Source: a bacterium (lineage in GTDB: Bacteria > Patescibacteriota > Microgenomatia > Daviesbacterales > UBA10151). Taken from it: a stretch of 64,000 nucleotides of DNA. Position 1 is the first letter of the stretch. Every line of letters begins with the position of its first letter. Below, piece by piece: positions 10,321 to 53,391 of this stretch. Below the pieces are notes generated by a model that was not told where the DNA came from, ran no database searches, and saw only the letters and a program-made list of their open reading frames with translations. The position numbers and the translations under genes were made by a program. The DNA lies in the NCBI GenBank assembly GCA_021790255.1, contig JAJYIE010000002.1, forward strand, positions 413 to 64,412, read 5' to 3'.

Positions 10321-10323
10321 CTT

Positions 10324-11394: not shown

Positions 11395-12589
11395 TTACAC
11401 GGCCAAGGATTTAAAGGGCAACTACCATAAAGGTGAAGTTGAAACAGCCGACGAACATCAGGCGGCGGTGATTTTGCGGCGCAAAAGCCTGATAGTGATC
11501 TCCTTAAAATCATCATCGGAGAAAGGCGGATCGTTTTTCAAACAGTTTTTCTTCCGGGTCTCTTTCAACGAGGTGGTAATTATGACCAGGCAGCTGGCTA
11601 CGATGATTCAGGCCGGGCTGGTCTTATCAGAGGCGCTGGATATTCTGGAGGAGCAGCAGGCCAACAGTAAAATGAAACTTGTACTGCGGGATGTTTCTAC
11701 TGATATCAAAGGCGGAATTGATTTTGCATCAGCGCTGGAAAAACACCCGGAGGTTTTCCCGAAACTTTATGTTCAGCTGGTGCGGGCCGGGCAGGCCTCA
11801 GGTAAGCTGGATACAGTACTTTTGGAGCTGGCATCCAACCTGGAAAAGCAAAGGGATTTTCAAAGCAAGGTCAAAGGGGCAATGATTTACCCCGCTGTGA
11901 TTCTGGTTATGATGCTCACAGTCATGATGATTATGATGTTTGTGGTTATTCCTCAGCTGACTAAGATGTTCAGCGATGCTCAGATGCAGCTTCCCCTTCC
12001 CACGAAAATTGTTATCGCCATCGCCTCTTTCTTGATAAATTTCTGGTGGCTGCTGCTGATAGGAGTAGCGGGGCTTATCTACGGAGCCAAAAAGTTTTTA
12101 TCCACTCCGACCGGCCGGCTAATCTATGATAATTTCATGATTACCTTTCCGGTGGTAGGAAATATATCCCGCCTGGTAATAATGACCAACTTCACCCGCA
12201 CCCTGGGGCTTTTGGTGGCGGCCGGGATCCCCATTATTGACGCCATTAAGATTGTCAGTGATGTGGTGGGCAACAGTGTTTACAAAAAAGGCTTATTGGA
12301 AACATGCAAGGGTGTGGAGCGCGGCCTAACTTTTTCCAGCCAGCTTCTGGCTCTGCCCCTCTTCCCGCGCATTGTCGGGCAAATGATTAAAACCGGTGAG
12401 GAAACCGGAAAACTTGATGATATTATGTACCGGCTGGCAGATTATTTTGAATCAGAGGCGGATAATATCTTAAAAAACAGCACAGCGCTGGTGGAACCGA
12501 TTACCCTGGTAATTTTGGGGGCAGGAGTAGGCTTTTTGGTGGTTTCCATAATTTTGCCGATTTACCAGTTAAGCACGAACATAAAATAG
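11381..12589 (+). CDS. pilC: Type IV pilus inner-membrane platform protein PilC (GspF family)
   Basis: Starts MPVFSYTAKDLKGN..., the canonical PilC N-terminus. T2SSF repeats and TM helices. The track start at 11351 would overlap pilT, so the internal ATG is chosen. Confidence 0.85.
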   Translation: MPVFSYTAKDLKGNYHKGEVETADEHQAAVILRRKSLIVISLKSSSEKGGSFFKQFFFRVSFNEVVIMTRQLATMIQAGLVLSEALDILEEQQANSKMKLVLRDVSTDIKGGIDFASALEKHPEVFPKLYVQLVRAGQASGKLDTVLLELASNLEKQRDFQSKVKGAMIYPAVILVMMLTVMMIMMFVVIPQLTKMFSDAQMQLPLPTKIVIAIASFLINFWWLLLIGVAGLIYGAKKFLSTPTGRLIYDNFMITFPVVGNISRLVIMTNFTRTLGLLVAAGIPIIDAIKIVSDVVGNSVYKKGLLETCKGVERGLTFSSQLLALPLFPRIVGQMIKTGEETGKLDDIMYRLADYFESEADNILKNSTALVEPITLVILGAGVGFLVVSIILPIYQLSTNIK

Positions 12590-12664
12590 TTAATTTTTAA
12601 CCAAACACTTGACGAAAATCGGAGACTATGACAACATTAAAATAAATTGAGAGGGGGTGAGGAT

Positions 12665-13210
12665 ATGAGAAAAAATGCTCGCGGTTTCACTTTGGTTGAG
12701 CTTTTGGTAGTTATTGCCATTATTGCTATTTTAGCGGCAGTGGTGGTACTGATTATTAATCCGTTGGAGCTGATGAGGCGCTCACGTGATGCAGCCAGAC
12801 TGACTGACCTGGCAAACCTTCAGCAGGCTATTAATGTAGCGGCACAGGAAGCAACAGGTTCCGGAGTCGGCATTCTCTGTTTCGGCCAAACAGGCAATCC
12901 CACTCCAGGTACGGTTATGTGCCAGGGCAATACAAACACCGATCCTTCCAGCACCAGGCGTAATGCTGATGGTACAGGATGGGTAAAGGTGAATTTGTCC
13001 AGCCAGCAAAGTGTGTCAGTGCCAACTCTACCGGTAGATCCAATTAACAATAGTACCTATAACTACACTTATGCCTCTGACGGGCAAAGCTGGGAAATTG
13101 ATGCTGTTTTGGAGTCGCAACAGCAAATTAATGCCGGAAGGATGAGTAATGATGGTGGAAATAACCCCAACGTTTATGAGGTTGGTTCTAACCTGCTTTT
13201 GCTTCCGTAG
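12665..13210 (+). CDS. Type IV pilin (likely major pilin), class III signal peptide MRKNARG|FTLVELLVV
   Basis: Prepilin cleavage/methylation motif G|FTLVE with Glu+5. Strong SD GAGGGGGTGAGG sits 3-5 nt before the ATG at 12665. The track start at 12647 is a TTG. Confidence 0.8.
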   Translation: MRKNARGFTLVELLVVIAIIAILAAVVVLIINPLELMRRSRDAARLTDLANLQQAINVAAQEATGSGVGILCFGQTGNPTPGTVMCQGNTNTDPSSTRRNADGTGWVKVNLSSQQSVSVPTLPVDPINNSTYNYTYASDGQSWEIDAVLESQQQINAGRMSNDGGNNPNVYEVGSNLLLLP

Positions 13211-13211
13211 A

Positions 13212-14111
13212 ATGGTGTCAGCGGTCATAGGATTTTTACTGGGTGTTAGTTTAGGAAGTTTTGCTAAGGCGACCGCTGACAGGGTTATTGCCGGGAAATC
13301 ATTGAGGGGAAGGTCGTACTGCTGGTCATGTAAAAGGAGACTAAAGTGGTACGACCTTTTTCCTGTACTCTCCTACATCTCTTTGCGCGGCCGTTGCCGT
13401 TTTTGCCACAAAAGGATTCCTCCACAGCTTTTTATCTCTGAGATAGCCATGGGGGTATTAGTGGCTCTCGTTTTTTGGACGGCCCTGCTCCCCTACCCCG
13501 ATTTCTTGCTGCTGCCTTACTGGGAAATGGGCTTAATCGGGTTTGAGGTTTTGTTTAAGGTTTTTATCGTTTGTGTGATGTTTATTGTTTTTTGGACGGA
13601 TTTGCAAGGCGGGTTGATCTTTGACCGGGTTATGTACCCGGCTCTGGAGGCAGCAGCCATATTTTGGGTGGTTCTTTCAGCCCTGCGTTCTGCTTCATTA
13701 TATTATCAGCTGCAGGGAAGTTTAATCGGAAGGTTTCTGCTGCCTCCGCACACTGATTATTTATACCAGCACTTAAAGTCTATCTGGATGCTGCCGGTGG
13801 AGTCCTTGCTGGCAGGGGTTTTGGCTGCCCTCTTTTTTATTATCCTTATTTTGGTAACGCGTGGCCGGGGCATGGGCTGGGGGGATGTTAAATATGTGCT
13901 CTTTTTGGGACTGGCCCTGGGCTTTCCAAATATAATAGTGGGCTTAATACTCTCTTTTGTTTTCGGGTCGGTTGCATCTTTAGTATTGATAGTAATGAAA
14001 AGGCGGCATTTCGGCCAAACTATCCCTTTCGGTCCATTTCTTTCCATGGGCGCTTATGTGGCACTGCTTTACGGCCAGCAGATCATGGATTGGTATTTAA
14101 AGGCTTTTTAA
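13212..14111 (+). CDS. pilD: Prepilin peptidase / N-methyltransferase PilD (A24 family)
   Basis: CWSC...CRFCHKRIP zinc-ribbon tetracysteine and polytopic membrane domains. The start is taken at the ATG right after the pilin stop. The track start at 13149 overlaps the pilin. Confidence 0.85.
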   Translation: MVSAVIGFLLGVSLGSFAKATADRVIAGKSLRGRSYCWSCKRRLKWYDLFPVLSYISLRGRCRFCHKRIPPQLFISEIAMGVLVALVFWTALLPYPDFLLLPYWEMGLIGFEVLFKVFIVCVMFIVFWTDLQGGLIFDRVMYPALEAAAIFWVVLSALRSASLYYQLQGSLIGRFLLPPHTDYLYQHLKSIWMLPVESLLAGVLAALFFIILILVTRGRGMGWGDVKYVLFLGLALGFPNIIVGLILSFVFGSVASLVLIVMKRRHFGQTIPFGPFLSMGAYVALLYGQQIMDWYLKAF

Positions 14112-14182
14112 ATTTGGTCCTAAATTGGTGTATTGACAAGCATTTTAAGTTATGACAACAATAGATTAGATAAAAAAGTTCT

Positions 14183-14692
14183 ATGAAAAAACTACTGCCC
14201 AAAACTGCTAATAACCCCGAAGGCTTTACTCTTGTAGAACTTATGGTTGTCATCACTATTTTGGCCATTCTGGCTTTGGTTGGTTTGACTGCTTTTGGTG
14301 AGGCGCAGAAAAGGGGACGTGATGGTAAAAGGATTCAGGAAATTGAAGCAATTGCGCAGGCATTAGAGATTCACTATGTAAATACTGGTGCTACACCAGG
14401 GTACCAACCACTTGTAAACACTTGGTTTGCTGATGCTACTATTCCCCAAGATCCTCAGCATGGTGCGACTCCTAATTATGATTATTGTTTAAAGATGAGT
14501 ACTTCAACTCCTCAAACTTGTGATGCGGCGATTGGCCACCACCCTGCAGGAAACGGAAGTTGTCTTACTGGTGATACTCCAATAGTAAGTAATATAACGA
14601 ATACGCCTACAGCAGGAACGAGATATTGGATAGTCTATGCATTTTCTGAAGCAAATGATACCGATGTTTACTGTAAAACAAGTAGCCAGTAA
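14183..14692 (+). CDS. Prepilin-type protein (leader MKKLLPKTANNPEG|FTLVELMVV)
   Basis: Class III signal peptide with Glu+5. Confidence 0.75.
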   Translation: MKKLLPKTANNPEGFTLVELMVVITILAILALVGLTAFGEAQKRGRDGKRIQEIEAIAQALEIHYVNTGATPGYQPLVNTWFADATIPQDPQHGATPNYDYCLKMSTSTPQTCDAAIGHHPAGNGSCLTGDTPIVSNITNTPTAGTRYWIVYAFSEANDTDVYCKTSSQ

Positions 14693-14711
14693 GGGTTAAA
14701 GAGTTTAGAAG

Positions 14712-14734
14712 GCCGCCGGAAGGCGGCTTTTTTT
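14712..14734 (+). terminator. Rho-independent terminator (GCCGCC-ggaa-GGCGGC then T7)
   Basis: 6-bp GC stem, 4-nt loop, and a run of seven T immediately 3' of pilin gene 2. Confidence 0.6.
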
Positions 14735-14831
14735 GTGGGCTTTCCCGTGATATCTGGAAGGGGCGTAGCGAGCCGATGGGTTTAAGCGAGACCGGAATGA
14801 CAACAATCAGCAAATGTGCTACCTTTGTTAT

Positions 14832-15302
14832 ATGAGGGGAAAATCAGGGCTTACCTTAATCAGCAAACTTGCCAAAGGAAACCCGGCGGGTTTTACTTTG
14901 ATTGAACTGATGGTCACCGTTTCCATTGTGGCGGTGCTTATGAGCGCAGGAATGACTCTTTATGGTGATATGCAAAAAAACGGTGCGGACCAGCAGCGGG
15001 AGGGAGATTTAGCGCAGATCCAAAGCGCCCTGGAACAATATAAAGCGGACCAGCATTATTACCCGAGTTCGCTGCCGGCTGTAGGCAGCGCTTTGAAAGA
15101 CCCTGCTAATGCCGTGACATATTTGTCGGCTGTTCCGGGAGATCCGTCATCCGGCGCTTCATATTCATATGTGGCCGGGCAAACCGGCTGTACTACTGCC
15201 AATAAAAATTGTTATAGTTACACCCTCTGTGCTACTCTGGAAAATACCACGGGTGGCAGTTGTTCTCACGGCACCGGTAATTATGAGGTAGATTCACCAT
15301 AA
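14832..15302 (+). CDS. Prepilin-type protein (leader ...KGNPAG|FTLIELMV)
   Basis: Class III signal peptide with Glu+5. The internal ATG is preferred over the track start at 14814. Confidence 0.7.
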   Translation: MRGKSGLTLISKLAKGNPAGFTLIELMVTVSIVAVLMSAGMTLYGDMQKNGADQQREGDLAQIQSALEQYKADQHYYPSSLPAVGSALKDPANAVTYLSAVPGDPSSGASYSYVAGQTGCTTANKNCYSYTLCATLENTTGGSCSHGTGNYEVDSP

Positions 15303-15304
15303 AA

Positions 15305-15715
15305 ATGAGGCGTGATAGTGGGTATACTCTAGTCGAGCTAATGGTGGTAATTACCATCATTACTGTTTTGACTTTGGTGGCCGGAGTTTATTACCATGAT
15401 ATGCAGCTGAACGCCCAAGACGCAAACCGGTTAAAGGATTTGACTGCCATTAAGCAGGCGCTGGAGATGTACAGAAACAGTAACGGATCATATCCGTCCA
15501 ATATAAGTCAGTTCGTGCCTAAATATCTTAATGCCATACCCACCGATCCTGGTCCTTCCTCCTACGGTTACGTATTAATTTTACAACCGACCAACTATGC
15601 TTTATGTGCCCACGAAGAAGGTAGCGCTAACTTTGGCCAGCCGCCGTATTTGTGCACCCTATCGGATTGTGGAGGTGGCCTGGGCAGCTGTAATATGGGA
15701 CTTTCTTCGGAATAA
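15305..15715 (+). CDS. Prepilin-type protein (MRRDSG|YTLVELMVV)
   Basis: Class III signal peptide with Glu+5. Confidence 0.75.
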   Translation: MRRDSGYTLVELMVVITIITVLTLVAGVYYHDMQLNAQDANRLKDLTAIKQALEMYRNSNGSYPSNISQFVPKYLNAIPTDPGPSSYGYVLILQPTNYALCAHEEGSANFGQPPYLCTLSDCGGGLGSCNMGLSSE

Positions 15716-15716
15716 T

Positions 15717-16352
15717 ATGAAAATAGTCAGGATCCGTGGTTATACATTAGTTGAGCTTTTGGTAGTTATTTCAATCATGGCGATAATGACTTTAAGCGCG
15801 ATGCCGATTTTTAGGAACTACCAAAATGATCAGAAGGTTAAAGCGGCAGCCCTGCAGCTTCAGGAAGCTCTGCGCGAGGCTCAAAATAACGCCTTAAGTG
15901 GAGTAGTTTGCGCACCGAATAATCCGGCAGATAACTGGGGAATAATTTTCGGAGATGACCAAACTACCTCCACTAATAATTATCAGGTGGCACCTGTATC
16001 TTATAGCGCTTCCGGTAACAGCTTGATTGTAAGTTCCCCTTGTCCGGGCGGAAGCCCTCCCAGCCCGCCGCTTATCACAAGTAATTTTGCTTCTCCGATT
16101 CAAATTCTAAAGCTGAACGGCACTTCCGGTCATAATTGTGCTAATCATGGGCATCTGAAATCCCTGGGCATTGCCTTTCAAAATGTGTCCGGGGCGATTA
16201 AGTTTGCCAGCGGCAGCAATAGCCCCAATTGTGCTCCCAACAGCGGCTTTTTGGAATTTGTCCTGGCTCCGGCCAGGGCTACCTCTCCGACGGTGACCGT
16301 TCACGTTGACAACGGTGGGGCGATTTATACTTGCCAGGGCAGCGGGTGTTAG
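15717..16352 (+). CDS. Prepilin-type minor pilin/pseudopilin (MKIVRIRG|YTLVELLVV)
   Basis: Class III signal peptide. The internal ATG is chosen because the track start at 15597 lies inside the previous gene. Confidence 0.75.
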   Translation: MKIVRIRGYTLVELLVVISIMAIMTLSAMPIFRNYQNDQKVKAAALQLQEALREAQNNALSGVVCAPNNPADNWGIIFGDDQTTSTNNYQVAPVSYSASGNSLIVSSPCPGGSPPSPPLITSNFASPIQILKLNGTSGHNCANHGHLKSLGIAFQNVSGAIKFASGSNSPNCAPNSGFLEFVLAPARATSPTVTVHVDNGGAIYTCQGSGC

Positions 16353-16394
16353 TTCGTTGACACCCCCCTCTCAAACCAATATAGTGGAATAAGG

Positions 16395-16901
16395 ATGAAT
16401 TTGCCCAAAAAGTTGTATTGGAGGCAAACTGGTCAGGGTCTGACGGAGGTATTAATTGCGCTGATGGTGGGGGCGATTCTGGTAGGGGCGATGGTGGTGG
16501 TAGTAATTACCAGCATGAAAAACTCGGAATATGCCCAGGATCAGACCAAAGCTACAAAATACGCCCAGGATGCCCTGGACCAGATCCGGGCTATCCGTGA
16601 CCGTAATGGGACAGTTGGTTGCAGCGGCTGTACTACCGGCACATTCCAAGACTTCTTTAGTGCCGCTCCCCCACCCCTGCCAAAATATTTTACTATCAGT
16701 TCCGGGGCGCTGGAAGAACAGCCGTCATCAACACCAGTGGCAATAACAGGTGAAGTCGGCCTGTCCCGGGAGATCGAAGTTGCCAGTCCTCCCGGCGGCT
16801 ATGCTGGGGTAAAGGTGACAGTCTGGGTTTATTGGAATGATTCGAAGGGCCAGCATTCATCACAACTGGAAACGGTTTTGACGCCTTACGGTTATAATTG
16901 A
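16395..16901 (+). CDS. Prepilin-type minor pilin (atypical leader ...QTGQG|LTEVLIALMV)
   Basis: Gly, then a hydrophobic helix with Glu at +3/+4. PilW/FimT-like architecture. Confidence 0.6.
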   Translation: MNLPKKLYWRQTGQGLTEVLIALMVGAILVGAMVVVVITSMKNSEYAQDQTKATKYAQDALDQIRAIRDRNGTVGCSGCTTGTFQDFFSAAPPPLPKYFTISSGALEEQPSSTPVAITGEVGLSREIEVASPPGGYAGVKVTVWVYWNDSKGQHSSQLETVLTPYGYN

Positions 16902-17554
16902 GGAGACGCATGAAAAAAAAATATTTACTGAGACTGCATGGTTTTAGTGTGGTGGAGCTTATTATAGTCATTGCAATGGCCGGTGTACTGGGCATTGTCT
17001 TTACCACTATAATGATCCAGTCAATGCGCGGGCAAAATAAAGTTAATGCCATCGACCAGGTCAAACAAAACGGCCAGCTTGTAATGAATGAGCTTTCCAA
17101 CGAAATCCGCATGGCTGATCAGGTTGTTTGCACAACCACAACAGGCCCGCAAACTCTGGTAGTGCTGGAGAATGGCTTGTATTACCGCTATACGTTGGTT
17201 TCCCCAAGCGGCGGAGCTAATGGCTATATTAAGAAGGAGATTTCCCCGACAGTAGATTCGGGGACAAATCCGCCCTTGAGTGCGGGTACCACTAAAGATC
17301 AGGTGTGTGCAACGGTTTTTTCTTCCGCGGCCACCTCACTCACATTAAGTGATACCAATACACAAACTGGGGTCTCAATCAATGCTCCGGCCGCTCCTGA
17401 TACGGTGTTTACCGAGAATACCGCAGGCGGTTATGATACAGTGACAATTAAATTTGTAATTTCCCCGGCTGTGAGCGTAAGTAGCCTTGAGGAAAACAGG
17501 GTTTCTCCCGAAACTTTTACGACTACGGTGGAACTGCAAGGAATGCAGAGATGA
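16898..17554 (+). CDS. Prepilin-type minor pilin (…RLHG|FSVVELIIV)
   Basis: Class III signal peptide with Glu+5. 4-nt overlap with its neighbours. Confidence 0.7.
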   Translation: MRRRMKKKYLLRLHGFSVVELIIVIAMAGVLGIVFTTIMIQSMRGQNKVNAIDQVKQNGQLVMNELSNEIRMADQVVCTTTTGPQTLVVLENGLYYRYTLVSPSGGANGYIKKEISPTVDSGTNPPLSAGTTKDQVCATVFSSAATSLTLSDTNTQTGVSINAPAAPDTVFTENTAGGYDTVTIKFVISPAVSVSSLEENRVSPETFTTTVELQGMQR

Positions 17555-18495
17555 AAACAACCAACAAACAGCTTGGGCAGATCGCCATTATCAGTTTGCT
17601 TATTATAGTCACGGTTTTGGCAATCGCACTCTCAGTTGTGGGCAGAAGCACAACAGAGCTTTCCTCCTCCAGCCGGACGGAAGAATCTTCCCGGGCACTG
17701 TCTGCTGCCGAAGGCGGTTTGGAGCAGGCTTTGTACCAACTGGGCACGGGATCCACAGCTGTTAATATCGCTCCCAACTCACCTTTCGGAAATAATACTT
17801 CCCTGAGTGTACAATCCTTCTCCTTGCCGGCCTCGGGGTTAGCTTTAGCTTATCCTCCTATTACCAAGTCCGATTTCGCCCAATTCTGGCTGGCTAACCC
17901 GACCCAAGTCGACGCCAACGGTGTACCGGCAAGTTACTATATGGCCTCAACTTTTAATGTTTATTTCGGCATGACAGCGCAGGATTTGATTAACATGAAC
18001 CTTTCCGGCCATTATACCTCCGCTCCTGATGATCAGCCGGCGCTGGAGGTCAGGTTGATTTCCTTTAACGGTTCAGGTTATGAATCAGCTAGCTATCTTT
18101 TTGACTCGTATTCAGGCAGAAACCCTCCGAATAATTTTCAGCTTCTGAGTTGTGGTAGTTTTTCTGTGTCAACCAATACAGGCAGTCCGGATGACCAGAA
18201 GTCATTTTACTGCAGAATCCAGATAACGGTCAAAGACGGTAGTGGAAATTCTTATATGCCGAGCGTATCCCATTATCCGGTGATGGCCAGGGCAAGGATT
18301 CTCTATAGCTCGCTCGCCCATCCTGTGGCGGTTGAACCAATATCAGGGTATAACCTCTATCCGCAAGCTAATATTGTTGAATCCACGGGAACGATTGCTA
18401 ACGTCCAGAGAAAGATCAGTGTGTTCCAGCAGCAAAATGTCCTGCCGATTTTTCTTGACTTTGCCCTGTTTTCCGGCGGTTCACTGTCCAAATGA
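17551..18495 (+). CDS. PilX-N-like minor pilin (…KQLG|QIAIISLLIIV… ALSAAEGGLEQAL)
   Basis: N-terminal hydrophobic helix followed by an ALSAAE(A/G)GLE-like PilX_N signature. Confidence 0.6.
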   Translation: MKTTNKQLGQIAIISLLIIVTVLAIALSVVGRSTTELSSSSRTEESSRALSAAEGGLEQALYQLGTGSTAVNIAPNSPFGNNTSLSVQSFSLPASGLALAYPPITKSDFAQFWLANPTQVDANGVPASYYMASTFNVYFGMTAQDLINMNLSGHYTSAPDDQPALEVRLISFNGSGYESASYLFDSYSGRNPPNNFQLLSCGSFSVSTNTGSPDDQKSFYCRIQITVKDGSGNSYMPSVSHYPVMARARILYSSLAHPVAVEPISGYNLYPQANIVESTGTIANVQRKISVFQQQNVLPIFLDFALFSGGSLSK

Positions 18496-18917
18496 AAAAG
18501 TTTTTAGTAGAAAAGCAAGCGGGTGTCACGCTGGTAGAGTTGATTTTGGCTCTTTTGGTGGTATCCGCCCTGATTATTATTCTCAGCAATCTGCCTTCCT
18601 CACTGTCTGCCATCAGCCGCAATCGCAACGGCTCAATCGCCCGGGACGCAGCCAGCAAGCAGATGGAATATCTGCGTCGATTAGGTTATGATAACCTACC
18701 TCCCACCGGAAGCTTCTCTGACAGCTCTTTGAACAGCTTGCCATTTGCTACTGCCAGCTTTGAGGTTGATCCCTGCCCGGTTACAATTTGCACCAGCGGT
18801 GATCCCAATAGAGAGCCGGCTAAACTGGTGAAGGTAGATGTGAGCTGGAATGAATCCGGCGATAATAAAAAAATTGATCTTACCACTCTTATCAGTAAGG
18901 GAGGTTTAGGCCAATGA
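18492..18917 (+). CDS. Prepilin-type minor pilin (PilV-like; MKKFLVEKQAG|VTLVELILAL)
   Basis: Class III signal peptide with Glu+5. Confidence 0.7.
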   Translation: MKKFLVEKQAGVTLVELILALLVVSALIIILSNLPSSLSAISRNRNGSIARDAASKQMEYLRRLGYDNLPPTGSFSDSSLNSLPFATASFEVDPCPVTICTSGDPNREPAKLVKVDVSWNESGDNKKIDLTTLISKGGLGQ

Positions 18918-19480
18918 AGGGATTTACCCTGGTAGAAACGCTTCTGACTACCAGCATCGCGGTGATTGTGGGGATAGTTTTACTATCCATTTTTCTTAAC
19001 CACACTGGGGTTTTTTATAAGCAAAACGCTCTGGTTACTGAAGGCTTAGGCTTAAATGATGCCATGAGTGTTTTAAGCAACCAGATCCGGCAAGGTGTAA
19101 GTGTGGCTGCCGGCTATCCGGAATCTTCCCCAACCATCCTTTCATCAGATACAGTTTTAGTCCTTAAATTACCTGCCCTTTCTTCCTCCGGGGTGATTAG
19201 CAATGTTTATGACTTCGTGGCGATTTTCCCAGATTTAAGCACCCCAACTGTGCTGCGGATGCAGACTTTCCCTGACCCGGCCAGTATCAGGCCGGGGAGC
19301 AACCAGGTACTAACCACCTTGCTGCAGTCGGTCAAATTTACCTACTATGACCATAGTGGCAATGTTGTTACTCCGACCAATGCTGCTTTGGTAGGGGTGG
19401 ACCTGACGGTTTTATCCAAGACCGGCTCAATCGGCTCCAGCAGGACAACTAAAGCGGTGGTTGATTTGAGGAACCATTAA
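18914..19480 (+). CDS. Prepilin-type minor pilin (MKG|FTLVETLL)
   Basis: Short class III leader with Glu+5. Confidence 0.7.
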   Translation: MKGFTLVETLLTTSIAVIVGIVLLSIFLNHTGVFYKQNALVTEGLGLNDAMSVLSNQIRQGVSVAAGYPESSPTILSSDTVLVLKLPALSSSGVISNVYDFVAIFPDLSTPTVLRMQTFPDPASIRPGSNQVLTTLLQSVKFTYYDHSGNVVTPTNAALVGVDLTVLSKTGSIGSSRTTKAVVDLRNH

Positions 19481-21289
19481 ATGAGAAAAAGGCATTTTTT
19501 CAGCAGTGAAAAATGTTCAGAGGGACAGATTTTAATGCTTGCGCTGTTTATTATGGTGATTGTGATGACCACCACCCTGATTATTATCAGTGGCTCACTG
19601 ATTTATTCCGAAAACACCAATTACTCACTACAGTCGCTGCAGGCTCTTAACTTGGCGGAAGCCGGAGTGGATAAGGCTGTTGCTTCGCTGAATGCCACAA
19701 GCGGCGCTTACTCAGGCGAGGACGGTACGGTTTTAGGCGCCGGACAGTATTCAGTGGTGATTACAACACCTGATGCCGGAACTAAACTTGTGGAATCCAC
19801 GGGATTTGTTCCCAGCAAAGACAATCCGAAGGCAAAAAGAACAATTGATATAACTGTGGCCAAGGGAGTGGGAGTGGCTTTTAATTACGGAGTCCAGGTT
19901 GGAGAAGGCGGTTTTCAGATGGCCAATGGCAGTGAAATTAAGGGGTCAATTTATTCTGACGGCAATATTATTATGAGCAACAACGCTCAGATTACCGGGG
20001 ACGCTTATGTTGCCGGCGGTACGGCCCCAAATCCTGACCAGCAGAGCGTTTGTAGCACTTACTGCGGTGATTTTATTTTCGGAACAAATGTTAACGGGCA
20101 GGACCGGCTGGATGTGGCACAAAGTTTTGTTCCCGGTGTTTCCGATTACCTAAATAAAGTGTCAATCAGGCTGAAAAAACAGGGCACGCCGCCGGACCTT
20201 ACCCTACGGCTTTTGGGAGACAGCGGTGGTCAGCCTGACCAAAAAAACGTCATTGCTTCCGGAACCCTGACAGCTGGGTTGGTAGGTAATGAGTATGGCT
20301 TTGTTGATGTGCCTTTTTCTTCACCTCCCAAGGTAACTGCCGGAACTGTCTACTGGATTATGCTTGATACCTCAGAAGACAGCAATAATTACTGGTACTG
20401 GGAGGCAGATACTATGCAGGGATACACCTTAGGCCAGGCGAAATGGTCACAAAACTGGCAGGCTAAAAATCCTATCTGGAATACCCCCTCGCCTCCTCTG
20501 GATTTGGACTTTGAAACATATATGGGCGGCACAGCCACATATATTCAGGGCAGCCAGGGTGTGACTATTGGCGGAGATGCTCATGCTAATACCTTGGAAA
20601 ACCTGCTGATAACCGGCAGTGCGTATTATCAGGTAGCGCAGAATATTTCGGCAGCCCATTCTTATCCCGGATCTGCCGATCCGCCCAATGTTGCTATGCC
20701 GGTGTCGGAAAGTAATATCTTATCATGGGAAAGCCGGGCTGAAAAAGCCAACCCGTCACTTGGACCGGTTAATAATTGTGTGGCCACCCTTGGCCCCGGT
20801 AAATACAACGGTGATGTGACAATTCTCAGCAACTGCACGGTCACGATTGAAGATCCGATCTGGATTACCGGGAATTTAACACTGGGAAACGGGGTTCAGT
20901 TTAATCTTGATCCTTCTTACGGTCCATCTTCTGGGGTAATTTTAGTGAGCGGCAAGGTAAACATTTCGAATACGGTGACAATAAACGGCTCGGGGAGTGC
21001 GGGGAGCTACCTGATGATGCTGACAATTTTTGATTCTCGCCCCGGGTCTCCCACCGCTGGCCAAATTGCCCTTTCAACGTCAAACGCCGGAACTGCCGGT
21101 ATCCTCTACGCGCCTTACGGTATTGCCCAAATTAACAACGGAGATAAACTGAGTGAAATATCGGCCTGGGAGGTGGAAATGGGCACAGGGGTACAAATAA
21201 CATACCAAACCGGTTTTGCCTCAACATTCTTTTCAGTCGGCCCCTCCGGCGCTTTTTCCCTGGTTAAGGGAACATATCAGCTGAAGTAG
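19481..21289 (+). CDS. Large (602 aa) pilus-associated protein: PilX-N-like N-terminus plus Gly/Asn-rich beta-helix-like body (putative tip/adhesin)
   Basis: N-terminal TM helix followed by LNLAEAGVDKAV (PilX_N-like). Body has repetitive G/N/T-rich segments such as SDGNIIMSNNAQITGDAYVAGG. Confidence 0.55.
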   Translation: MRKRHFFSSEKCSEGQILMLALFIMVIVMTTTLIIISGSLIYSENTNYSLQSLQALNLAEAGVDKAVASLNATSGAYSGEDGTVLGAGQYSVVITTPDAGTKLVESTGFVPSKDNPKAKRTIDITVAKGVGVAFNYGVQVGEGGFQMANGSEIKGSIYSDGNIIMSNNAQITGDAYVAGGTAPNPDQQSVCSTYCGDFIFGTNVNGQDRLDVAQSFVPGVSDYLNKVSIRLKKQGTPPDLTLRLLGDSGGQPDQKNVIASGTLTAGLVGNEYGFVDVPFSSPPKVTAGTVYWIMLDTSEDSNNYWYWEADTMQGYTLGQAKWSQNWQAKNPIWNTPSPPLDLDFETYMGGTATYIQGSQGVTIGGDAHANTLENLLITGSAYYQVAQNISAAHSYPGSADPPNVAMPVSESNILSWESRAEKANPSLGPVNNCVATLGPGKYNGDVTILSNCTVTIEDPIWITGNLTLGNGVQFNLDPSYGPSSGVILVSGKVNISNTVTINGSGSAGSYLMMLTIFDSRPGSPTAGQIALSTSNAGTAGILYAPYGIAQINNGDKLSEISAWEVEMGTGVQITYQTGFASTFFSVGPSGAFSLVKGTYQLK

Positions 21290-21351
21290 CGAAGAGAAAG
21301 AATCTTGCAAAGTGGGGCTTTTGCACCTAAACTGGAGATAGGTAAAAGATT

Positions 21352-22383
21352 ATGGCTGCCAAGTTAGTTACAGGTTTGGATATCGGAACTTTCTCCATCA
21401 AAGCAGTGGTGTTATCCCACGGAGGCAAGCAGCCACACCTTGTTTCCTTCGGAGCAGTTTCCGCTCCCCAACCAGGCCTCGCTTCCGAGGGGAAAGCTGA
21501 CCTGGAAGCTGAAGCTGAGGCTATCAAGGGGCTGCTTGATTCTATTAAAGCTCCCTCCTCTTCAGTGGTAGTAGCACTGCCGGAATCAAAGATTTTTACC
21601 CGGGTGATCAGCGACATTCCATATATGACGGATGAGGAGCTGGCATCGGCTATCCGCTATTCGGCGGAAGAGTTTGTTCCTCTGCCGGTAGACCAGGTTA
21701 ACCTGTATTGGCAAACCGTGGCCCGCTCTAAGGAACAAAACAGCACCCTGGTCTTTGTAGTGGCTACTCCCAAGGTGATCACAGAAAAGTATATGGATGT
21801 GCTGCAGATGGCTAAACTAAAGCCCCTGGCTTTGGAAACGGAATTGATTGCTGCCACCAGGGCTTTGGTGGGCAATAATCCGTATGCTCCCACCACTCTG
21901 ATTGTGCAAATCGGGGCAAGCTCAACAGATTTTGCCGTGGTTTCAAAGGGGATGATGTTTTTAACCCGTTCAATTGCTACCGGCGGCATGGCTTTGACCA
22001 GGGCGCTGGCTCAATACCTGAACTTTGAACAGCCACAGGCGGAGGAATATAAAAAGGTTTATGGTTTGGCTGAAGACCAGCTGGGAGGCAAAATTTACCA
22101 GGCGCTAAAGCCTTTGACGGAGGTTTTAGTTTCAGAAGCCAGAAGGGTAATTCAGGCTTTTCAAGTCAAAAACCCTCAAAATCCTATCAAGCGGGTAGTG
22201 CTGGCGGGAGGTGGGGCAAACATGCCCGGCGTAGTGGTCTATTTTGCCAATAGCTTGGGTCTGGAAATCCAGGAAGCGGATCCATGGTATTTTGTGGATA
22301 AAGACCCGGCCATTGCCCAGCGCCTGCAGGCAGAGGCCATGAATTATACAATTGCTGTAGGGTTGGCAATGCGGGAAGGTTGA
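21352..22383 (+). CDS. pilM: Type IV pilus assembly protein PilM (actin-like ATPase fold)
   Basis: GLDIGTFSIKAVV N-terminus and an FtsA/PilM-like fold. Confidence 0.85.
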   Translation: MAAKLVTGLDIGTFSIKAVVLSHGGKQPHLVSFGAVSAPQPGLASEGKADLEAEAEAIKGLLDSIKAPSSSVVVALPESKIFTRVISDIPYMTDEELASAIRYSAEEFVPLPVDQVNLYWQTVARSKEQNSTLVFVVATPKVITEKYMDVLQMAKLKPLALETELIAATRALVGNNPYAPTTLIVQIGASSTDFAVVSKGMMFLTRSIATGGMALTRALAQYLNFEQPQAEEYKKVYGLAEDQLGGKIYQALKPLTEVLVSEARRVIQAFQVKNPQNPIKRVVLAGGGANMPGVVVYFANSLGLEIQEADPWYFVDKDPAIAQRLQAEAMNYTIAVGLAMREG

Positions 22384-22402
22384 GTCTCACCCTAAGCTTA
22401 AA

Positions 22403-22960
22403 ATGGCTAATTCAATTGCAATTAATTTATTACCCAAAGAAGTGCTGACGGCCCGCAGCCGCAGCGTTAAAGTCACACTGGCTTACAAAATCAGTATCGT
22501 TTTGCTGATTATTTTGGCCATTGTCACCTCAACCATTCTCTCGGTTCGTTTCAGCCAGAAAATCCGCCTGCAGCAAGCTCAGGACCAGACAAAAAATCTG
22601 GAGAATAAAATTTCAGCATTGAATCAGAGGGAACAACAACTGATAACTATTAAACAAAAATTGGCTAGTATTGCTCAGCTTACTGGTGGCGACAAAGCGG
22701 AAAAAGAACTGTTTGACAAGATGGTTTCTCTGGTACCCCCGGAGATGACTATTACCGAGGCAATGGTGGATCCTAAGGGAACAATGGAAATAAGCGCCAC
22801 TACCACTTCGTTGCCGGCAATAGATACTTTTATTAAGGCTATTGAAATCCAGATGAAGACTTCAAATATGATCCAGAAACTAGAACTGGAATCTTTGTCA
22901 CTTGACCCGAGCGGTGATTTTAAGATGCTGTTTAAAATCTTACCGCCGGGAACAGCCTGA
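22403..22960 (+). CDS. pilN: Type IV pilus assembly protein PilN
   Basis: The INLLP motif at the N-terminus followed by a single TM helix. Confidence 0.8.
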   Translation: MANSIAINLLPKEVLTARSRSVKVTLAYKISIVLLIILAIVTSTILSVRFSQKIRLQQAQDQTKNLENKISALNQREQQLITIKQKLASIAQLTGGDKAEKELFDKMVSLVPPEMTITEAMVDPKGTMEISATTTSLPAIDTFIKAIEIQMKTSNMIQKLELESLSLDPSGDFKMLFKILPPGTA

Positions 22961-22973
22961 ACAAAAGAAAAAT

Positions 22974-23762
22974 ATGGATACGCTGAAAATTTTTTTTGGT
23001 GATCAGAAAACCGTATTCTGGTCAGTTTGCACGGCAGCGACGGCATTGGTTGTAATATACTTTGTCATTATTCCGCAAGCGCATGCTTTCATAGACGTTG
23101 GGCAGCAGCTTAAGCAGCTGCAGGGCCGCTCCCAAGCCTTAAACACTAAACTGGCTGCCTTACAGGCAGAAGATGAGAATGCGGATAAAGAAAATCTGCA
23201 GGTTGCTTTAACTATTTTGCCGACAGAAGAAAAGGTAACTGAAGCTCTGATCACGGTTCAAGACTTGCTGGCTAAAAGCGGTATGGCTTTATATACGGCA
23301 AACTACACAACCCAGAGAACAAAAGTCGGCAGCGGATTTACCCTAAGTGTTGTGGCCAAAGGTGACATGAATGGGGTACGCAGTTTTCTATCCAGTTTAG
23401 ACAGTGCCCCACGAATTTTCCGTGTTAATTCAATAGACGTCCGGTCAGATCTGAGTAACCATGGGGTGATGGACGCAGAGATACCGCTGAGCGTTTTTTA
23501 TGAACCATTGTCGGGTGCCATATCCACAGGCAATTTGGATAAGCCGCTTCCCCAGCTGAGCGCCCAGGATAAACAGCTACTGGAGAAACTTACAGGTGTT
23601 CTTGCCCAGTTTCCGGAGAGCGCCAGCGGCTCGGCTGTCGAAGTTGGGAAAGATAACCCTTTTGAGTCAAGTCAGCCTCAGCCAACCGCAGCTCCTACCC
23701 CTCAGCCCACTCCCCTTGAAGTTGCTCCGACCTCGACTCCGAGCGCCTCATTGCAGGGTTGA
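22974..23762 (+). CDS. pilO: Type IV pilus assembly protein PilO-like with C-terminal Pro/Thr-rich tail
   Basis: Single N-terminal TM helix, coiled coil, then a PilO-like domain. The tail is PQPTAAPTPQPTPLEVAPTSTPS. Confidence 0.6.
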   Translation: MDTLKIFFGDQKTVFWSVCTAATALVVIYFVIIPQAHAFIDVGQQLKQLQGRSQALNTKLAALQAEDENADKENLQVALTILPTEEKVTEALITVQDLLAKSGMALYTANYTTQRTKVGSGFTLSVVAKGDMNGVRSFLSSLDSAPRIFRVNSIDVRSDLSNHGVMDAEIPLSVFYEPLSGAISTGNLDKPLPQLSAQDKQLLEKLTGVLAQFPESASGSAVEVGKDNPFESSQPQPTAAPTPQPTPLEVAPTSTPSASLQG

Positions 23763-31557: not shown

Positions 31558-32691
31558 TTATTTTTTGGCAGTCAGCCGCTCAACTTCTTCTAAAGCGGCT
31601 TTCCTTTGTGGATCCTCAAAATATTTCCGGGCAGGTTCTAATTTCTCTATCAGCCACTCGGCAACGGCGTTTTTCAAATCCTGCGGATGTAATTTCTTTT
31701 CGGCGTAATCTTTTTCCAACTCTTCATATGAATGATAAATCAGATTTCCGCCCCACTTTCCATCGCGGGGTATTACAAAAGTGGTGTTTGGCTCATGGAA
31801 AATAAGATACTTGACCCAATCCAGAACCGGATTAAACTCAACTTCGCCTTCCGGGGCAAAAGCCTGTCGGACTTTATGCCTGATCTCGTCTGGGGTGTCA
31901 TGAATAAAAATAGAACTGTTGGGACGCGATTTGCTCATCTTAAACGTCTCCCGAAATGCATCTTTGTCACCTGCAGGAATCGGCCAAACTGACGGAGTTT
32001 CAATGCCGAGTAATAAATGATGGTGTAAAGCTACCGGCTTCATATGCTTGCCGCTTATATCTTTAAGCGGATTTACAGTAATTTGCATGGCTACATCTTT
32101 GGCGATAACATGAGCCTTACGTTGATCAGTTCCTCCGTGAGGAAGGTTGGTTTGCAGGGCGAAGATATCAGCCGCCTGCATGGCGGGATAAAGTAAAATT
32201 GCAAAATCCATTCCTTCTTCCTCTTTCCGTCCGGCGATACTGACAGATCTGACCATTCTGGCAAGCGTTGTATTGTGGCTAACTTCTGTCATGGTAGCCC
32301 AAAAGTCCGGATGTTGCTTATAAAGTTCGGATGCTTTAATGAATTTTAAATCATCAGGATTGCCGCCGACACTAAGATATCCGGCCTTAAGCGCCTCTTT
32401 AAAATATGTATCACCTAAACGGGTAATTGTTTCAAACTTGCCGTCCAGTTTTTTATTAAGCCAGGTATGCCAGTCAGCAATAAAAATTGTGACATCGACT
32501 CCGGCGTCAACGAAGTCCTTTACTTTTTGCATTGCCAAAAGGGTATGTCCGATATGAGGGATACCGGAGACCTCAAAGCCGATGTAATGACGAAGCGGCG
32601 TTCCCGATTCAATTAAAGATCTGAGTTCTTCGGGTGTTAAAACTTCATCGAGACCTCTGGTAATTAAATTAAATTTTTCGTCATTGGTCAT
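31558..32691 (-). CDS. tyrS: Tyrosyl-tRNA synthetase, archaeal/eukaryal type (class I, HIGH = PHIGH, KMSKS present)
   Basis: GFEVSGIPHIGH...ADWHTWLN and the C-terminus LHPQDLKNAVAEWLIEKLEP closely parallel Methanocaldococcus-type TyrRS. The track's extra 62 N-terminal codons (to 32877) are rejected because the MTNDEKF start matches the family. TrpRS is not fully excluded. Confidence 0.75.
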   Translation of the reverse strand: MTNDEKFNLITRGLDEVLTPEELRSLIESGTPLRHYIGFEVSGIPHIGHTLLAMQKVKDFVDAGVDVTIFIADWHTWLNKKLDGKFETITRLGDTYFKEALKAGYLSVGGNPDDLKFIKASELYKQHPDFWATMTEVSHNTTLARMVRSVSIAGRKEEEGMDFAILLYPAMQAADIFALQTNLPHGGTDQRKAHVIAKDVAMQITVNPLKDISGKHMKPVALHHHLLLGIETPSVWPIPAGDKDAFRETFKMSKSRPNSSIFIHDTPDEIRHKVRQAFAPEGEVEFNPVLDWVKYLIFHEPNTTFVIPRDGKWGGNLIYHSYEELEKDYAEKKLHPQDLKNAVAEWLIEKLEPARKYFEDPQRKAALEEVERLTAKK

Positions 32692-32779
32692 GCATATAGT
32701 ATATCCTAGCTTGATCCTAAAAAACAGTCTGTTTTTTGATTTTTTAAGGAGTATATTTGTGCTACGATAAGGAGGTATC

Positions 32780-34606
32780 ATGGACGAAGAAAAGCCGAAG
32801 TCAGCCAGGCTCACGCAAGTTAAAGATACATATCGCGTCAGTCTGCGGCTGATGAAGTTCTTATGGTTTGTTGACAACCGGATGTTTGTCGGCTCATTTG
32901 TTGCCTACACCATCCCGGCCGTTATCCCTTTTCTTAATATTTATATTTACCAATTAGTAATTGACGCGGTTGTTAAAGCGGTGACCAGCGGCGGTATGGT
33001 TAATTACCATCAGTTATATACACTGTTTGCTTTCCGGATTGCCACTTACTTTATCCAGGACGTGGCATTGCGGTCGCAAAATTTGCTGGAGCGGCTGTAT
33101 TGGACAAAAGTGCCGATTTATTTAAACGATATTCTTTTGCGTAGAACCGCTTCCCTGGATATGTATTATTACGAAAACAGCCAGTTTCGCGACCTTTTAG
33201 AAAAAAGCCGTGACTCCATTACCTTTAAGCCGCAACAACTGGCTGACTTATTGTTTTCCAGCGGCCAAAGTTTGCTGCAGTTGCTGATCGCGTTTGTGGC
33301 CATCGCCCGGCTGAATTTATTTTTGGTGATACTGGTGGCATCCATTTCAATCCCGGAGTTTTTTGTCCAAGTACGGTTGTCCCGTCTGGCTTGGGGAATC
33401 TGGTCGAACCAATCACCATACCGAAAAAAGTTTTGGTACCTTTCAAATTTGCTTCAGCGCTCTTGGGATATTAAAGAAGTCAAAATTTTTCAGCTGGCAG
33501 ATAGGTTTTTAGCAGAGTTGAAGGATATCCAAAAAAAGTTTTATCAGGAAAATGCTGTTTTGGCAAAAAAGAACTATTCCCTCAATATCGGTTTTAATAT
33601 CTTATCGACTTTGATTTTTGTAGGAGTGGAAATCTTTGTGGTAATGCAGGCCATCGCCGGAAAAATTACCGTCGGAGGCATCAGCTTTTATACCGGCGTG
33701 GTCAGCAATTTCCAAAACGGCTTAAGCGGTCTGTTTTCTAATATTCGGGGAGTTTTTGAAGACAGTCTTTACGTAAAAAGTATTTTTGACATATTGGATC
33801 TTGAGCCGTACGTCAAACAGCCGGATGATCCGGTTAAATTGGATATCAGAAAAACGCCGCGGATTGAATTTTGCAACGTCACTTTCAAATACCCTGACTC
33901 GCACAAGAAAGTATTAAAAAACTTTTCCCTGACTATTAATCCCGGAGAAAAAGTTGCTTTGGTGGGAGAAAACGGCGTCGGTAAAACCACTTTGATTAAA
34001 CTTTTGGCCCGATTTTATGATGTGACTGAGGGCGAAATTTTAATTGACGGTGTCAACTTAAAAGATTTAAGTTTGGACCAGTGGTATAAGATGATGGGAG
34101 TGCTGTTCCAGGATTTTAACCGCTACGAACACACCGCCAAAGACAACATCGCTTTCGGCAAAATTTATGAACAAATTGAGCCAGAAGAAGTGACCAAGGC
34201 GGCAATGTCTGCCGGAGCGCACGAGATGATTAAGGGGTTTGAACAAGGTTATGAACAAATGCTGGGGAAAACTTTTGAGATGGGTTTGGAGCTATCCGGC
34301 GGCCAATGGCAAAAGATTGCTTTATCCAGGGCGTTTTTACGCAACGCCCCGGTTTTGGTTTTGGATGAGCCGACGGCGGCCATTGATGCTAAAGCTGAAA
34401 GTGAAATTTTTAACCGGGTGGAAAAACTATCGCGGGATAAGACTGTCATTATCATCTCTCATAGGTTTTCCACCGTCCGCAACGCTGACAAAATTTATGT
34501 CATCAACCGGGGTAAAATTATCGAATCCGGGAGCCATGAAGAATTGATGGGATTGGACGGCAAATACGCGACTTTATTTAAACTGCAGGCGAAAGGATAC
34601 CAATAA
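32780..34606 (+). CDS. ABC transporter, fused permease/ATPase (exporter type)
   Basis: Six-TM N-terminal domain, Walker A GENGVGKTT, signature LSGGQWQKIALSRAF, Walker B LVLDEPTAA. SD AAGGAGGT precedes the start. Confidence 0.85.
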   Translation: MDEEKPKSARLTQVKDTYRVSLRLMKFLWFVDNRMFVGSFVAYTIPAVIPFLNIYIYQLVIDAVVKAVTSGGMVNYHQLYTLFAFRIATYFIQDVALRSQNLLERLYWTKVPIYLNDILLRRTASLDMYYYENSQFRDLLEKSRDSITFKPQQLADLLFSSGQSLLQLLIAFVAIARLNLFLVILVASISIPEFFVQVRLSRLAWGIWSNQSPYRKKFWYLSNLLQRSWDIKEVKIFQLADRFLAELKDIQKKFYQENAVLAKKNYSLNIGFNILSTLIFVGVEIFVVMQAIAGKITVGGISFYTGVVSNFQNGLSGLFSNIRGVFEDSLYVKSIFDILDLEPYVKQPDDPVKLDIRKTPRIEFCNVTFKYPDSHKKVLKNFSLTINPGEKVALVGENGVGKTTLIKLLARFYDVTEGEILIDGVNLKDLSLDQWYKMMGVLFQDFNRYEHTAKDNIAFGKIYEQIEPEEVTKAAMSAGAHEMIKGFEQGYEQMLGKTFEMGLELSGGQWQKIALSRAFLRNAPVLVLDEPTAAIDAKAESEIFNRVEKLSRDKTVIIISHRFSTVRNADKIYVINRGKIIESGSHEELMGLDGKYATLFKLQAKGYQ

Positions 34607-52639: not shown

Positions 52640-52668
52640 TTGCCTTGAGGCTCCCGAAACGGTAAAAT
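52640..52668 (+). promoter_or_regulatory. Sigma70-like promoter for tRNA-Tyr (TTGCCT -35, 17-nt spacer, TAAAAT -10)
   Basis: Hexamers read directly from the sequence. The -10 ends 11 nt before the tRNA 5' end. Confidence 0.4.
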
Positions 52669-52679
52669 ATCAGTTGGAT

Positions 52680-52752
52680 CCTGAGGTGGCAGAACGGTTG
52701 ATGCGCTGGTCTGTAAAACCAGTTTAAGTTGGTCCGACTCCAACCCTCAGGA
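52680..52752 (+). tRNA. tRNA-Tyr (anticodon GUA), class I (5-nt variable loop), C1:G72, A73, no encoded CCA
   Basis: Hand-folded. Perfect 7-bp acceptor (CCTGAGG/CCTCAGG), U8, A14, G18G19, a 5-bp anticodon stem CTGGT/ACCAG with loop CUGUAAA (U33, GUA, A37), and a perfect 5-bp T-stem GTTGG/CCAAC with G53 T54 C56 G57 A58. Position 55 is C rather than U, and the D-stem is 3 bp plus a G13.A22 mismatch. Confidence 0.6.
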
Positions 52753-52764
52753 CATTGACAAAAG

Positions 52765-52792
52765 ACCCCGCTTTGACGGGGTTTATTTTGTT
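52765..52792 (+). terminator. Rho-independent terminator after tRNA-Tyr (ACCCCG-ctttga-CGGGGT then TTATTTTGTT)
   Basis: 6-bp stem followed by a U-rich tract, 13 nt downstream of the tRNA. Confidence 0.55.
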
Positions 52793-52965
52793 AATATTCA
52801 TAGGTTGAAAGAGGCGGACTACCCGGCACGTCTAGTGCGGGGTTGTTCGAAGACGCGAAGTGTCGCAAGGTTCTGCCCGAAGGGCAGGTTCTTACTCTTA
52901 CCCCCAGGACCAAAGAAAAATTCCGACCCTAGCGGCTCCTAAAAACTCGGAATGACTCGGAAGAT

Positions 52966-53391
52966 TTATCTATTGGAGTTTCTTTTATCTCTACCCCTGA
53001 AATAGTGGATAGCTCTTAATAAGGGATTTCTTAAAGTGGGTGGCTGAGACGGTGTTGAGCGATATTCCGAGCTTGGTTGCTGTTGCAAAAACTCTGCTAC
53101 CATCTTTTGTACTCTCGGGTCTTTTGATTCTGTTATATCTTTAATTTCACCTCGGCTAAGTTGACCCATAAGTTGTTCAAATAATTCTGGTTGCTTTAAG
53201 AGCTCGGGGATTAAACCGAGGGCTCGATCATCCTCGGGGGTTTTCGGTCTTCGTTCATAAATCAGATGTGATTTGTTTGCGGTTGATCCCCCTGTAGACC
53301 CAAAATCAAAGCTTATTTCAATGACTGAATTTTCATCATCCAAAGCCTGATCTAAATCTCTCGGATTTATTCTTTCTTTACCGCCCGACAT
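52966..53391 (-). CDS. Hypothetical protein (141 aa)
   Basis: ORF only. Confidence 0.35.
   Translation of the reverse strand: MSGGKERINPRDLDQALDDENSVIEISFDFGSTGGSTANKSHLIYERRPKTPEDDRALGLIPELLKQPELFEQLMGQLSRGEIKDITESKDPRVQKMVAEFLQQQPSSEYRSTPSQPPTLRNPLLRAIHYFRGRDKRNSNR

Follow-up and report, generated by a model that had tools for sequence, protein, structure and literature searches.

The locus holds a class I tRNA-Tyr gene and an archaeal-type tyrosyl-tRNA synthetase

We analyzed a 64,000-nucleotide stretch of contig JAJYIE010000002.1 (assembly GCA_021790255.1), referred to here as the window. It carries a gene for a tyrosine tRNA, tRNA-Tyr(GUA), and, ~20 kb away on the same contig, a gene for an archaeal-type tyrosyl-tRNA synthetase (TyrRS). 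The two genes and the elements flanking the tRNA are:

52680-52752, + strand: tRNA-Tyr(GUA), class I, 73 nt (ARAGORN, Rfam RF00005, covariation in orthologues)
31558-32691, - strand: archaeal-type TyrRS, 377 aa, presumed cognate enzyme (NF006330, PDB matches, reader residues)
52640-52668, + strand: sigma-70-type promoter-like site, TTGCCT (52640-52645), 17-nt spacer, TAAAAT (52663-52668) (consensus scan, 9/12 matches)
52763-52794, + strand: intrinsic-terminator-like hairpin (52763-52784) with T-rich tail ATTTTGTTAA (terminator scan, both strands)

The host is bacterial, a member of the CPR (candidate phyla radiation) near Candidatus Daviesbacteria (Microgenomates). Its gene content is bacterial, with Mur ligases, GyrB, RecG, PBP1a and a type IV pilus cluster, besides TrmD, S16, RNase III, NusB, an F-type ATP synthase, PheRS and ThrRS. 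In tBLASTn comparisons the open reading frames (ORFs) of the window showed long synteny, at 55-80% protein identity, with loci from metagenome-assembled genomes (MAGs) of Ca. Daviesbacteria, including RecG, TyrRS, the ABC transporter, ATP synthase and PBP1a; the named PBP1a homologues were from Daviesbacteria or Patescibacteria. No close relative was present in the collections searched, where the closest matches were 62% identical for TyrRS and 75% for PBP1a.

ARAGORN returned a single tRNA in the 64-kb window, tRNA-Tyr(GTA) at 52680-52753 (+). The Rfam model RF00005 matched 52680-52752 end to end (model positions 1-71 of 71) with 56.6 bits, above the gathering score of 29 (E = 1.5e-9). Reading the Rfam structure line on the sequence, we found an acceptor stem of seven Watson-Crick pairs, the first two being C1:G72 (C at 52680 with G at 52751) and C2:G71, followed by the discriminator A73. 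The anticodon G34 U35 A36 lies in the loop CUGUAAA (U33, A37, A38), and 5 nt (UUUAA) make up the variable loop; the D stem has three Watson-Crick pairs plus the invariant G13.A22. U8, G9, A14 and G18 G19 are also present, and the T arm is GUUGG-UCCGACU-CCAAC (G53, U54, C55, C56, G57, A58). An earlier note on this DNA had proposed a 73-nt tRNA-Tyr(GUA) cloverleaf with C1:G72, A73, a 5-nt variable loop and a C at position 55; the two programs recovered the cloverleaf, and the individual nucleotides were all read again in the sequence, C55 in the T-loop UCCGACU.

Of the conserved tertiary nucleotides (U8, A14, G18, G19, U33, G53, U54, U55, C56, A58, C61), all but U55, here a C, are present, and the 15:48 position (window 52694, 52727) is A:A instead of R:Y. 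CCA is absent from the gene, which is followed directly by CATTGAC. The gene has the archaeal/eukaryal tRNA-Tyr identity set (C1:G72, A73, GUA, class I shape), and neither the G1:C72 pair nor the long variable arm of bacterial class II tRNA-Tyr is present.

The TyrRS retains the residues by which the M. jannaschii enzyme reads its tRNA

The earlier note had also placed an archaeal-type TyrRS ~20 kb from the tRNA gene, and both family models and conserved residues agree with that assignment. The protein scored 397.6 bits against the NCBIfam archaeal equivalog NF006330 (cut-off 220) and stayed under the cut-offs of TIGR00234 tyrS and of the TrpRS models. The sole Pfam match of ORF 31558-32877 was the class I W/Y catalytic domain (tRNA-synt_1b). 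Pfam found no S4-like C-terminal domain, the module by which bacterial TyrRS holds the long variable arm, and its alignment with the 375-aa enzyme of Pyrococcus horikoshii runs from end to end. This enzyme (2cyc) was the best PDB match (E = 2e-117), with 7fg6 and the TyrRSs of Aeropyrum/Archaeoglobus also among the best; for structures of bacterial TyrRS, E was ~1e-9.

HIGH is found at residue 46 of the protein and KMSKS at residue 251. In a pairwise alignment with Methanocaldococcus jannaschii TyrRS (MjTyrRS; the sequence used equals PDB 1j1u over 306/306 residues), the equivalents of R132, R174, K175, H283, D286, Y32 and D158 were all conserved. Among these, R174 and R132 of MjTyrRS read C1, K175 reads G72, and H283 and D286 read G34 (Tsunoda et al. 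2007, PMC1934993), while Y32 and D158 bind tyrosine. The listed ORF (31558-32877, 439 aa, TTG start) over-extends the enzyme by 62 residues and in doing so overlaps a divergent ABC transporter gene starting at 32780. Homology begins at an ATG, M63 of the listed ORF, which gives 377 aa, and the protein collection contains a record of exactly this product.

In a scan with one genome per species, the best TyrRS matches were Daviesbacteria MAGs (56-62% identity) and then DPANN archaea (52-56%). A neighbour-joining tree placed the window enzyme within a Daviesbacteria/Microgenomates clade, sister to the DPANN enzymes. Most Daviesbacteria TyrRSs among loci L001-L037 have Asn at the Lys175 position (motif QRNVH). 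The Lys is kept in the window, in L015, L021, L024, L030 and L035, and in all DPANN enzymes (QRKAH, QRKVH, QRKAQ). G72 is present in the tRNA throughout, despite this split in the enzyme, and because the tRNA keeps G72 while Lys175 becomes Asn, part of the clade may read G72 differently.

Orthologues show selection on the tRNA fold

Orthologues of the tRNA gene were gathered through homologues of PBP1a, as tRNA-Tyr adjoins PBP1a in the window and in L004 and L043. All 10 further PBP1a loci examined hold a tRNA-Tyr there, either adjoining or within ~1.5 kb. The resulting distinct genes (13/13) are all 73-nt class I tRNA-Tyr with C1:G72, C2:G71, A73 and the loop CUGUAAA. Ten of the 13 orthologues were aligned for a covariation test. 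The cloverleaf pairs in 180/180 cells of this alignment, with compensatory changes on both sides in 13 of the 20 pairs; C1:G72 and C2:G71 are constant. A fit as good was seen in none of 500 shuffles, and shifted-partner versions of the structure did not come close either. The window gene is identical to its nearest relative, in L043, at 67/73 positions; two pairs, 28:42 and 51:63, are swapped in a compensatory way, and two bases of the T-loop differ. Because the cloverleaf pairs in every cell and the changes are compensatory, these comparisons indicate that the tRNA-Tyr gene is under purifying selection for the tRNA fold and is not a pseudogene.

The same genes share an unusual 15:48 position. 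It is A:A in 9/13 class I tRNA-Tyr genes, G:G in 4/13 and R:Y in none, and it has switched at least twice (L004 versus L047; L046/L051 versus the rest). The long-arm CPR tRNA-Tyr genes of L023 and L032 have the standard G15:C48, which suggests that the covarying homopurine 15:48 accompanies loss of the arm.

Comparison with known systems

The earlier note had held that enzyme and tRNA are both in the non-bacterial recognition mode. The NF006330 match and the reader residues on one side, and C1:G72, A73 and the missing long arm on the other, agree with it. The co-switch is a correct rediscovery, already published for the CPR including Daviesbacteria: Mukai, Reynolds, Crnkovic and Soll 2017 (Life 7:8, PMC5370408) looked for this very combination and described archaeal/eukaryal-type TyrRS with C1-G72 tRNA-Tyr in CPR bacteria (Parcubacteria, Microgenomates, WS6 and WWE3, with Daviesbacteria named among the major groups). 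They found both long-arm and arm-less forms of tRNA-Tyr and proposed transfer from DPANN archaea. Our literature searches for later work on archaeal-type TyrRS/tRNA-Tyr in the CPR gave only this paper.

The window shares with that published system a DPANN-related archaeal/eukaryal-type TyrRS and a C1-G72 tRNA-Tyr in Microgenomates. It differs in that the tRNA has C55 and the TyrRS has Lys at the K175 position, where most Daviesbacteria have Asn; moreover, the paper stresses long-arm C1-G72 tRNAs, whereas 13/13 orthologues here are short-arm. Set beside the archaeal pair (M. jannaschii 1j1u, P. horikoshii 2cyc), the window enzyme likewise lacks an S4 domain and keeps the readers of C1, G72 and G34, and the tRNA has the same C1:G72, A73, GUA and short variable loop. 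Unlike the archaeal pair, the window has a tRNA body of bacterial look, with A37 A38, a D stem of 3 bp and G13.A22, and a homopurine pair at 15:48; its promoter is of sigma-70 type and its host a bacterium. With the bacterial class II tRNA-Tyr/TyrRS it has in common the CUGUAAA loop, the style of the D arm, the bacterial host and a stand-alone promoter, but not G1:C72, the long arm or, in the TyrRS, the S4-like arm-binding domain.

A resident bacterial tRNA-Tyr probably followed the new enzyme

We consider it probable (roughly 85%) that this gene serves a Daviesbacteria-like CPR bacterium as its functional, chromosomal tRNA-Tyr and was remodelled after replacement of the TyrRS by an archaeal-type enzyme. 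In the history that we propose, the bacterial TyrRS of the clade ancestor would have given way to a DPANN-related enzyme of archaeal type, which would read C1:G72 (through the equivalents of R174, K175 and R132), A73 and the GUA anticodon. The replacement would matter because such an enzyme reads these elements and has no S4-like arm-binding domain. The resident tRNA-Tyr would then have followed, its first pair flipping to C1:G72, and the long arm, by now useless, would have been lost in the lineage to leave a 73-nt class I tRNA. The present gene would be transcribed alone from the sigma-70-type promoter 11 nt upstream, its 3' end would have to be completed by the CCA-adding enzyme, and C55 would be a lineage-specific U-to-C change, a tolerated weakening of the elbow in an otherwise constrained gene. 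We infer from the sequences that this TyrRS charges this tRNA, and likewise the order of the events, the expression of the gene and the effect of C55.

The body of the tRNA most likely derives from a resident bacterial tRNA-Tyr, as far as sequence comparison can tell. L023 has a TyrRS that nests in the clade of the window enzyme and a C1:G72 tRNA-Tyr that keeps a 13-nt variable arm. In the Wolfebacteria locus L032 the arm of tRNA-Tyr measures 15 nt, and the T arm there, GTAGG-TTCGA-CCTAC, is also that of most Daviesbacteria tRNA-Tyr genes. The CUGUAAA loop (A37 A38), the D stem of 3 bp and G13.A22 follow the bacterial tRNA-Tyr pattern; M. jannaschii tRNA-Tyr has G37 and a D stem of 4 bp.

An alternative is that the tRNA gene was transferred from a DPANN archaeon along with the TyrRS, and is not a remodelled bacterial tRNA-Tyr. 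In its favour, the tRNA follows the archaeal pattern in its class I shape, C1:G72 and A73, the DPANN enzymes are the sister group of the TyrRS clade, TyrRS and tRNA-Tyr lie only 4-7 kb apart in L004, L048, L050 and L051, and Mukai et al. (PMC5370408) speak of CPR tRNA genes of 'bacterial or archaeal origins'. Such a joint transfer would however fit poorly with the long-arm C1:G72 tRNA of L023 in the same clade, with the T arm shared with the Wolfebacteria long-arm tRNA, and with a promoter of bacterial type. The anticodon-loop and D-arm features likewise fit bacterial tRNA-Tyr and not that of M. jannaschii. Since both the tRNA body and the promoter look bacterial, we favour stepwise remodelling of the resident tRNA and regard its transfer as unlikely.

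Nucleotide 55 and the points against a functional, remodelled gene

Several points weigh against the reading of a functional tRNA-Tyr remodelled from a resident gene. The neighbour-joining tree of TyrRS carries no support values, and no tRNA-Tyr was found in the DPANN loci used for comparison, so that an archaeal descent of the tRNA, though unlikely, keeps some weight. Our view is that of a single 64-kb window, in which we found no second tRNA-Tyr, bacterial TyrRS or TruB, and two tRNA-Tyr types have been described in one Roizmanbacteria genome (PMC5370408). U55, as pseudouridine (Psi55), is described as the modified position of tRNA that is conserved most universally, contacting G18 in the elbow, and U55 is regarded as essentially universal (PMC7912444), so that C55 could reduce function. 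C55 (window 52734) recurs in an identical tRNA in the Logan assembly of run SRR13170411, 100% alike over 15.3 kb, but this contig may come from the window's own reads and is therefore only partly independent. Finally, the single-sequence minimum free energy structure of the window tRNA (-27.0 kcal/mol) is not the cloverleaf (-23.6 kcal/mol). We rejected this misfit as an argument against a tRNA: the same is seen in 7/13 orthologues, and the covariation fits the cloverleaf perfectly.

The C55 copy might be decaying or non-functional, with another tRNA-Tyr elsewhere in the genome doing the work. The near-universality of U55, which 11/13 orthologues keep, speaks for this, as do the 64-kb limit of the view and the CPR genome with two tRNA-Tyr genes. 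Against it, the gene lies at a conserved spot upstream of PBP1a, as in 12/12 other orthologous loci. Since the split from L043 it has acquired two double substitutions, both compensatory, and its stems have stayed free of mismatches; its promoter is conserved, and every other invariant tertiary nucleotide is intact. C55 also arose independently in L050, in a tRNA that is otherwise perfect too. We therefore hold decay to be very unlikely.

The two orthologues with C55, those of the window and of L050 (run SRR31418084), both have the T-loop UCCGACU. The L050 gene is 54/73 identical to that of the window and 66/73 to the U55-bearing gene of L055, and the window's nearest tRNA-Tyr, that of L043 (67/73), bears U55 as well. 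Because each is closest to a U55-bearing gene, C55 arose twice. A Nanoarchaeota tRNA-Leu(TAA) (L012:5288-5371, - strand) has the T-loop UCCGAAC, hence C55, and its Woesearchaeota orthologues in L008 and L009 have UUCGAAC, hence U55; this DPANN case implies that C55 is limited neither to tRNA-Tyr nor to bacteria. In the small sample of distinct tRNAs at hand, C55 was present in 3/27. Given its independent recurrence in an orthologue and the compensatory evolution of the gene, we read C55 as a sporadic, apparently tolerated substitution in small-genome lineages and not as the sign of a pseudogene.

It is extremely unlikely that C55 is an error of sequencing or assembly, or that the contig came into a bacterial bin as an archaeal contaminant or a chimera. 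Metagenomic data, with a Logan contig that possibly stems from the window's reads, would allow for an error. The two assemblies are nevertheless 100% alike over 15.3 kb, and the same T-loop is found in the diverged L050 from another run (SRR31418084). As to contamination, tRNA and TyrRS stand on one contig among bacterial PBP1a, Mur ligases, RecG, PheRS and the pilus cluster, in a gene order conserved across Daviesbacteria MAGs.

As for its consequences, C55 must abolish Psi55 and should weaken the contact between G18 and nucleotide 55. We give very little credence to a C-to-U tRNA editing activity, so far unknown, that would restore U55 in the RNA; C8 is edited in Methanopyrus. Editing, if true, would account for an invariant position being mutated independently in two Daviesbacteria tRNA-Tyr genes and a DPANN tRNA-Leu gene that show no further signs of decay. 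In a milder version, small-genome organisms may translate with a genuine G18/C55 elbow, and without Psi55, in some of their tRNAs.

Domain-specific identity rules have their textbook case in the TyrRS/tRNA-Tyr pair, which is also the basis of orthogonal pairs for genetic code expansion. Bacteria that have passed this identity barrier in nature show that such a passage is possible and how it is made, a point raised in 2017 for the same bacterial group. To this the window adds a divergent member, with the arm lost throughout the clade and 15:48 a covarying A:A or G:G, and a case in which the near-universal U55 appears replaceable by C, repeatedly so in CPR and DPANN tRNAs. The recurrence of C55 and the homopurine 15:48 are small new details which leave the overall picture unchanged.

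Flanking promoter and terminator

The promoter-like site ends 11 nt ahead of the tRNA-Tyr gene. Taken alone it is weak, as the scan gave 1 site with 0.7 expected by chance. A -10 box 8-15 nt upstream of the tRNA and a -35 hexamer starting with TTG, spaced 17-18 nt apart, are however found in 12/14 orthologous tRNA-Tyr loci, and L039 and L048 have TTGCCT-17-TAAAAT identical to that of the window. Such recurrence at orthologous loci is far better evidence for a predicted promoter than a single-site scan. The terminator-like hairpin downstream folds at -19.3 kcal/mol (z = -6.98 relative to shuffled sequence), and on the minus strand the same hairpin reads as a terminator for the convergent ORF 52966-53391. 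It is not conserved: most orthologous loci have no comparable hairpin at that position. The TTGCCT-17-TAAAAT promoter and the hairpin/U-tract terminator proposed in the earlier note were thus both found again by the scans, the former as a promoter-like site whose position is kept in 12 of the 14 loci, the latter with z = -7.0.

Another hairpin-forming element is conserved in L043, L046 and L049 (for example GAGGGCAAGCTCTGCTTACCCTCAGG), ~15-55 nt downstream of tRNA-Tyr, and repeats the 3' acceptor strand CCCTCAGG. The window is without this element, and its own hairpin differs.

An interrupted copy, gene order and neighbouring genes

A metagenome scan with the 20-mer CCTGAGGTGGCAGARCGGTT gave 7 loci. 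Five of these (L038, L040, L041, L042 and L044) were discarded as non-tRNA sequence in which ARAGORN found no tRNA; four of the five share one conserved stretch. At L039:567-1085 there is a Daviesbacteria-type tRNA-Tyr copy whose intact part (567-605) reaches only to the anticodon loop. Unrelated sequence follows after 605, including a 126-aa ORF (667-1047) that matches the PD-(D/E)XK endonuclease family PF11645 (E = 1.5e-20), and the last 27 nt of the locus resemble the start of another tRNA (CCAGAGGTACCCAAGTGGCCAACGGGG). We rejected L039 as an intron-containing tRNA-Tyr, as there was no Rfam match to a tRNA or a group I intron and no 3' exon before the contig end; what interrupts the anticodon loop could be a mobile insertion or else an intron that bears an endonuclease.

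The distance between TyrRS and tRNA-Tyr is ~4-7 kb in L004, L048, L050 and L051, with the gene order TyrRS, ABC transporter, two to three genes, tRNA-Tyr, PBP1a. An ATP synthase/GPI block stands ahead of tRNA-Tyr in L047, L049, L052 and L055, as it does in the window. The loose linkage of TyrRS and tRNA-Tyr may be ancestral.

Seven MAGs titled 'uncultured Gammaproteobacteria' (L002, L013, L015, L016, L021, L024 and L025) carry a TyrRS of the Daviesbacteria clade. Several of them also share the window's flanking genes, and the labels are probably wrong. The type IV pilus cluster of the window (8611-23762) comprises two T2SSE ATPases, T2SSF, a prepilin peptidase, PilM and five pilins with the N-methyl motif, together with several ORFs without a Pfam match, one of them 602 aa long (19481-21289). 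Such a large cluster is ordinary for CPR genomes; many components of this one are unannotated.

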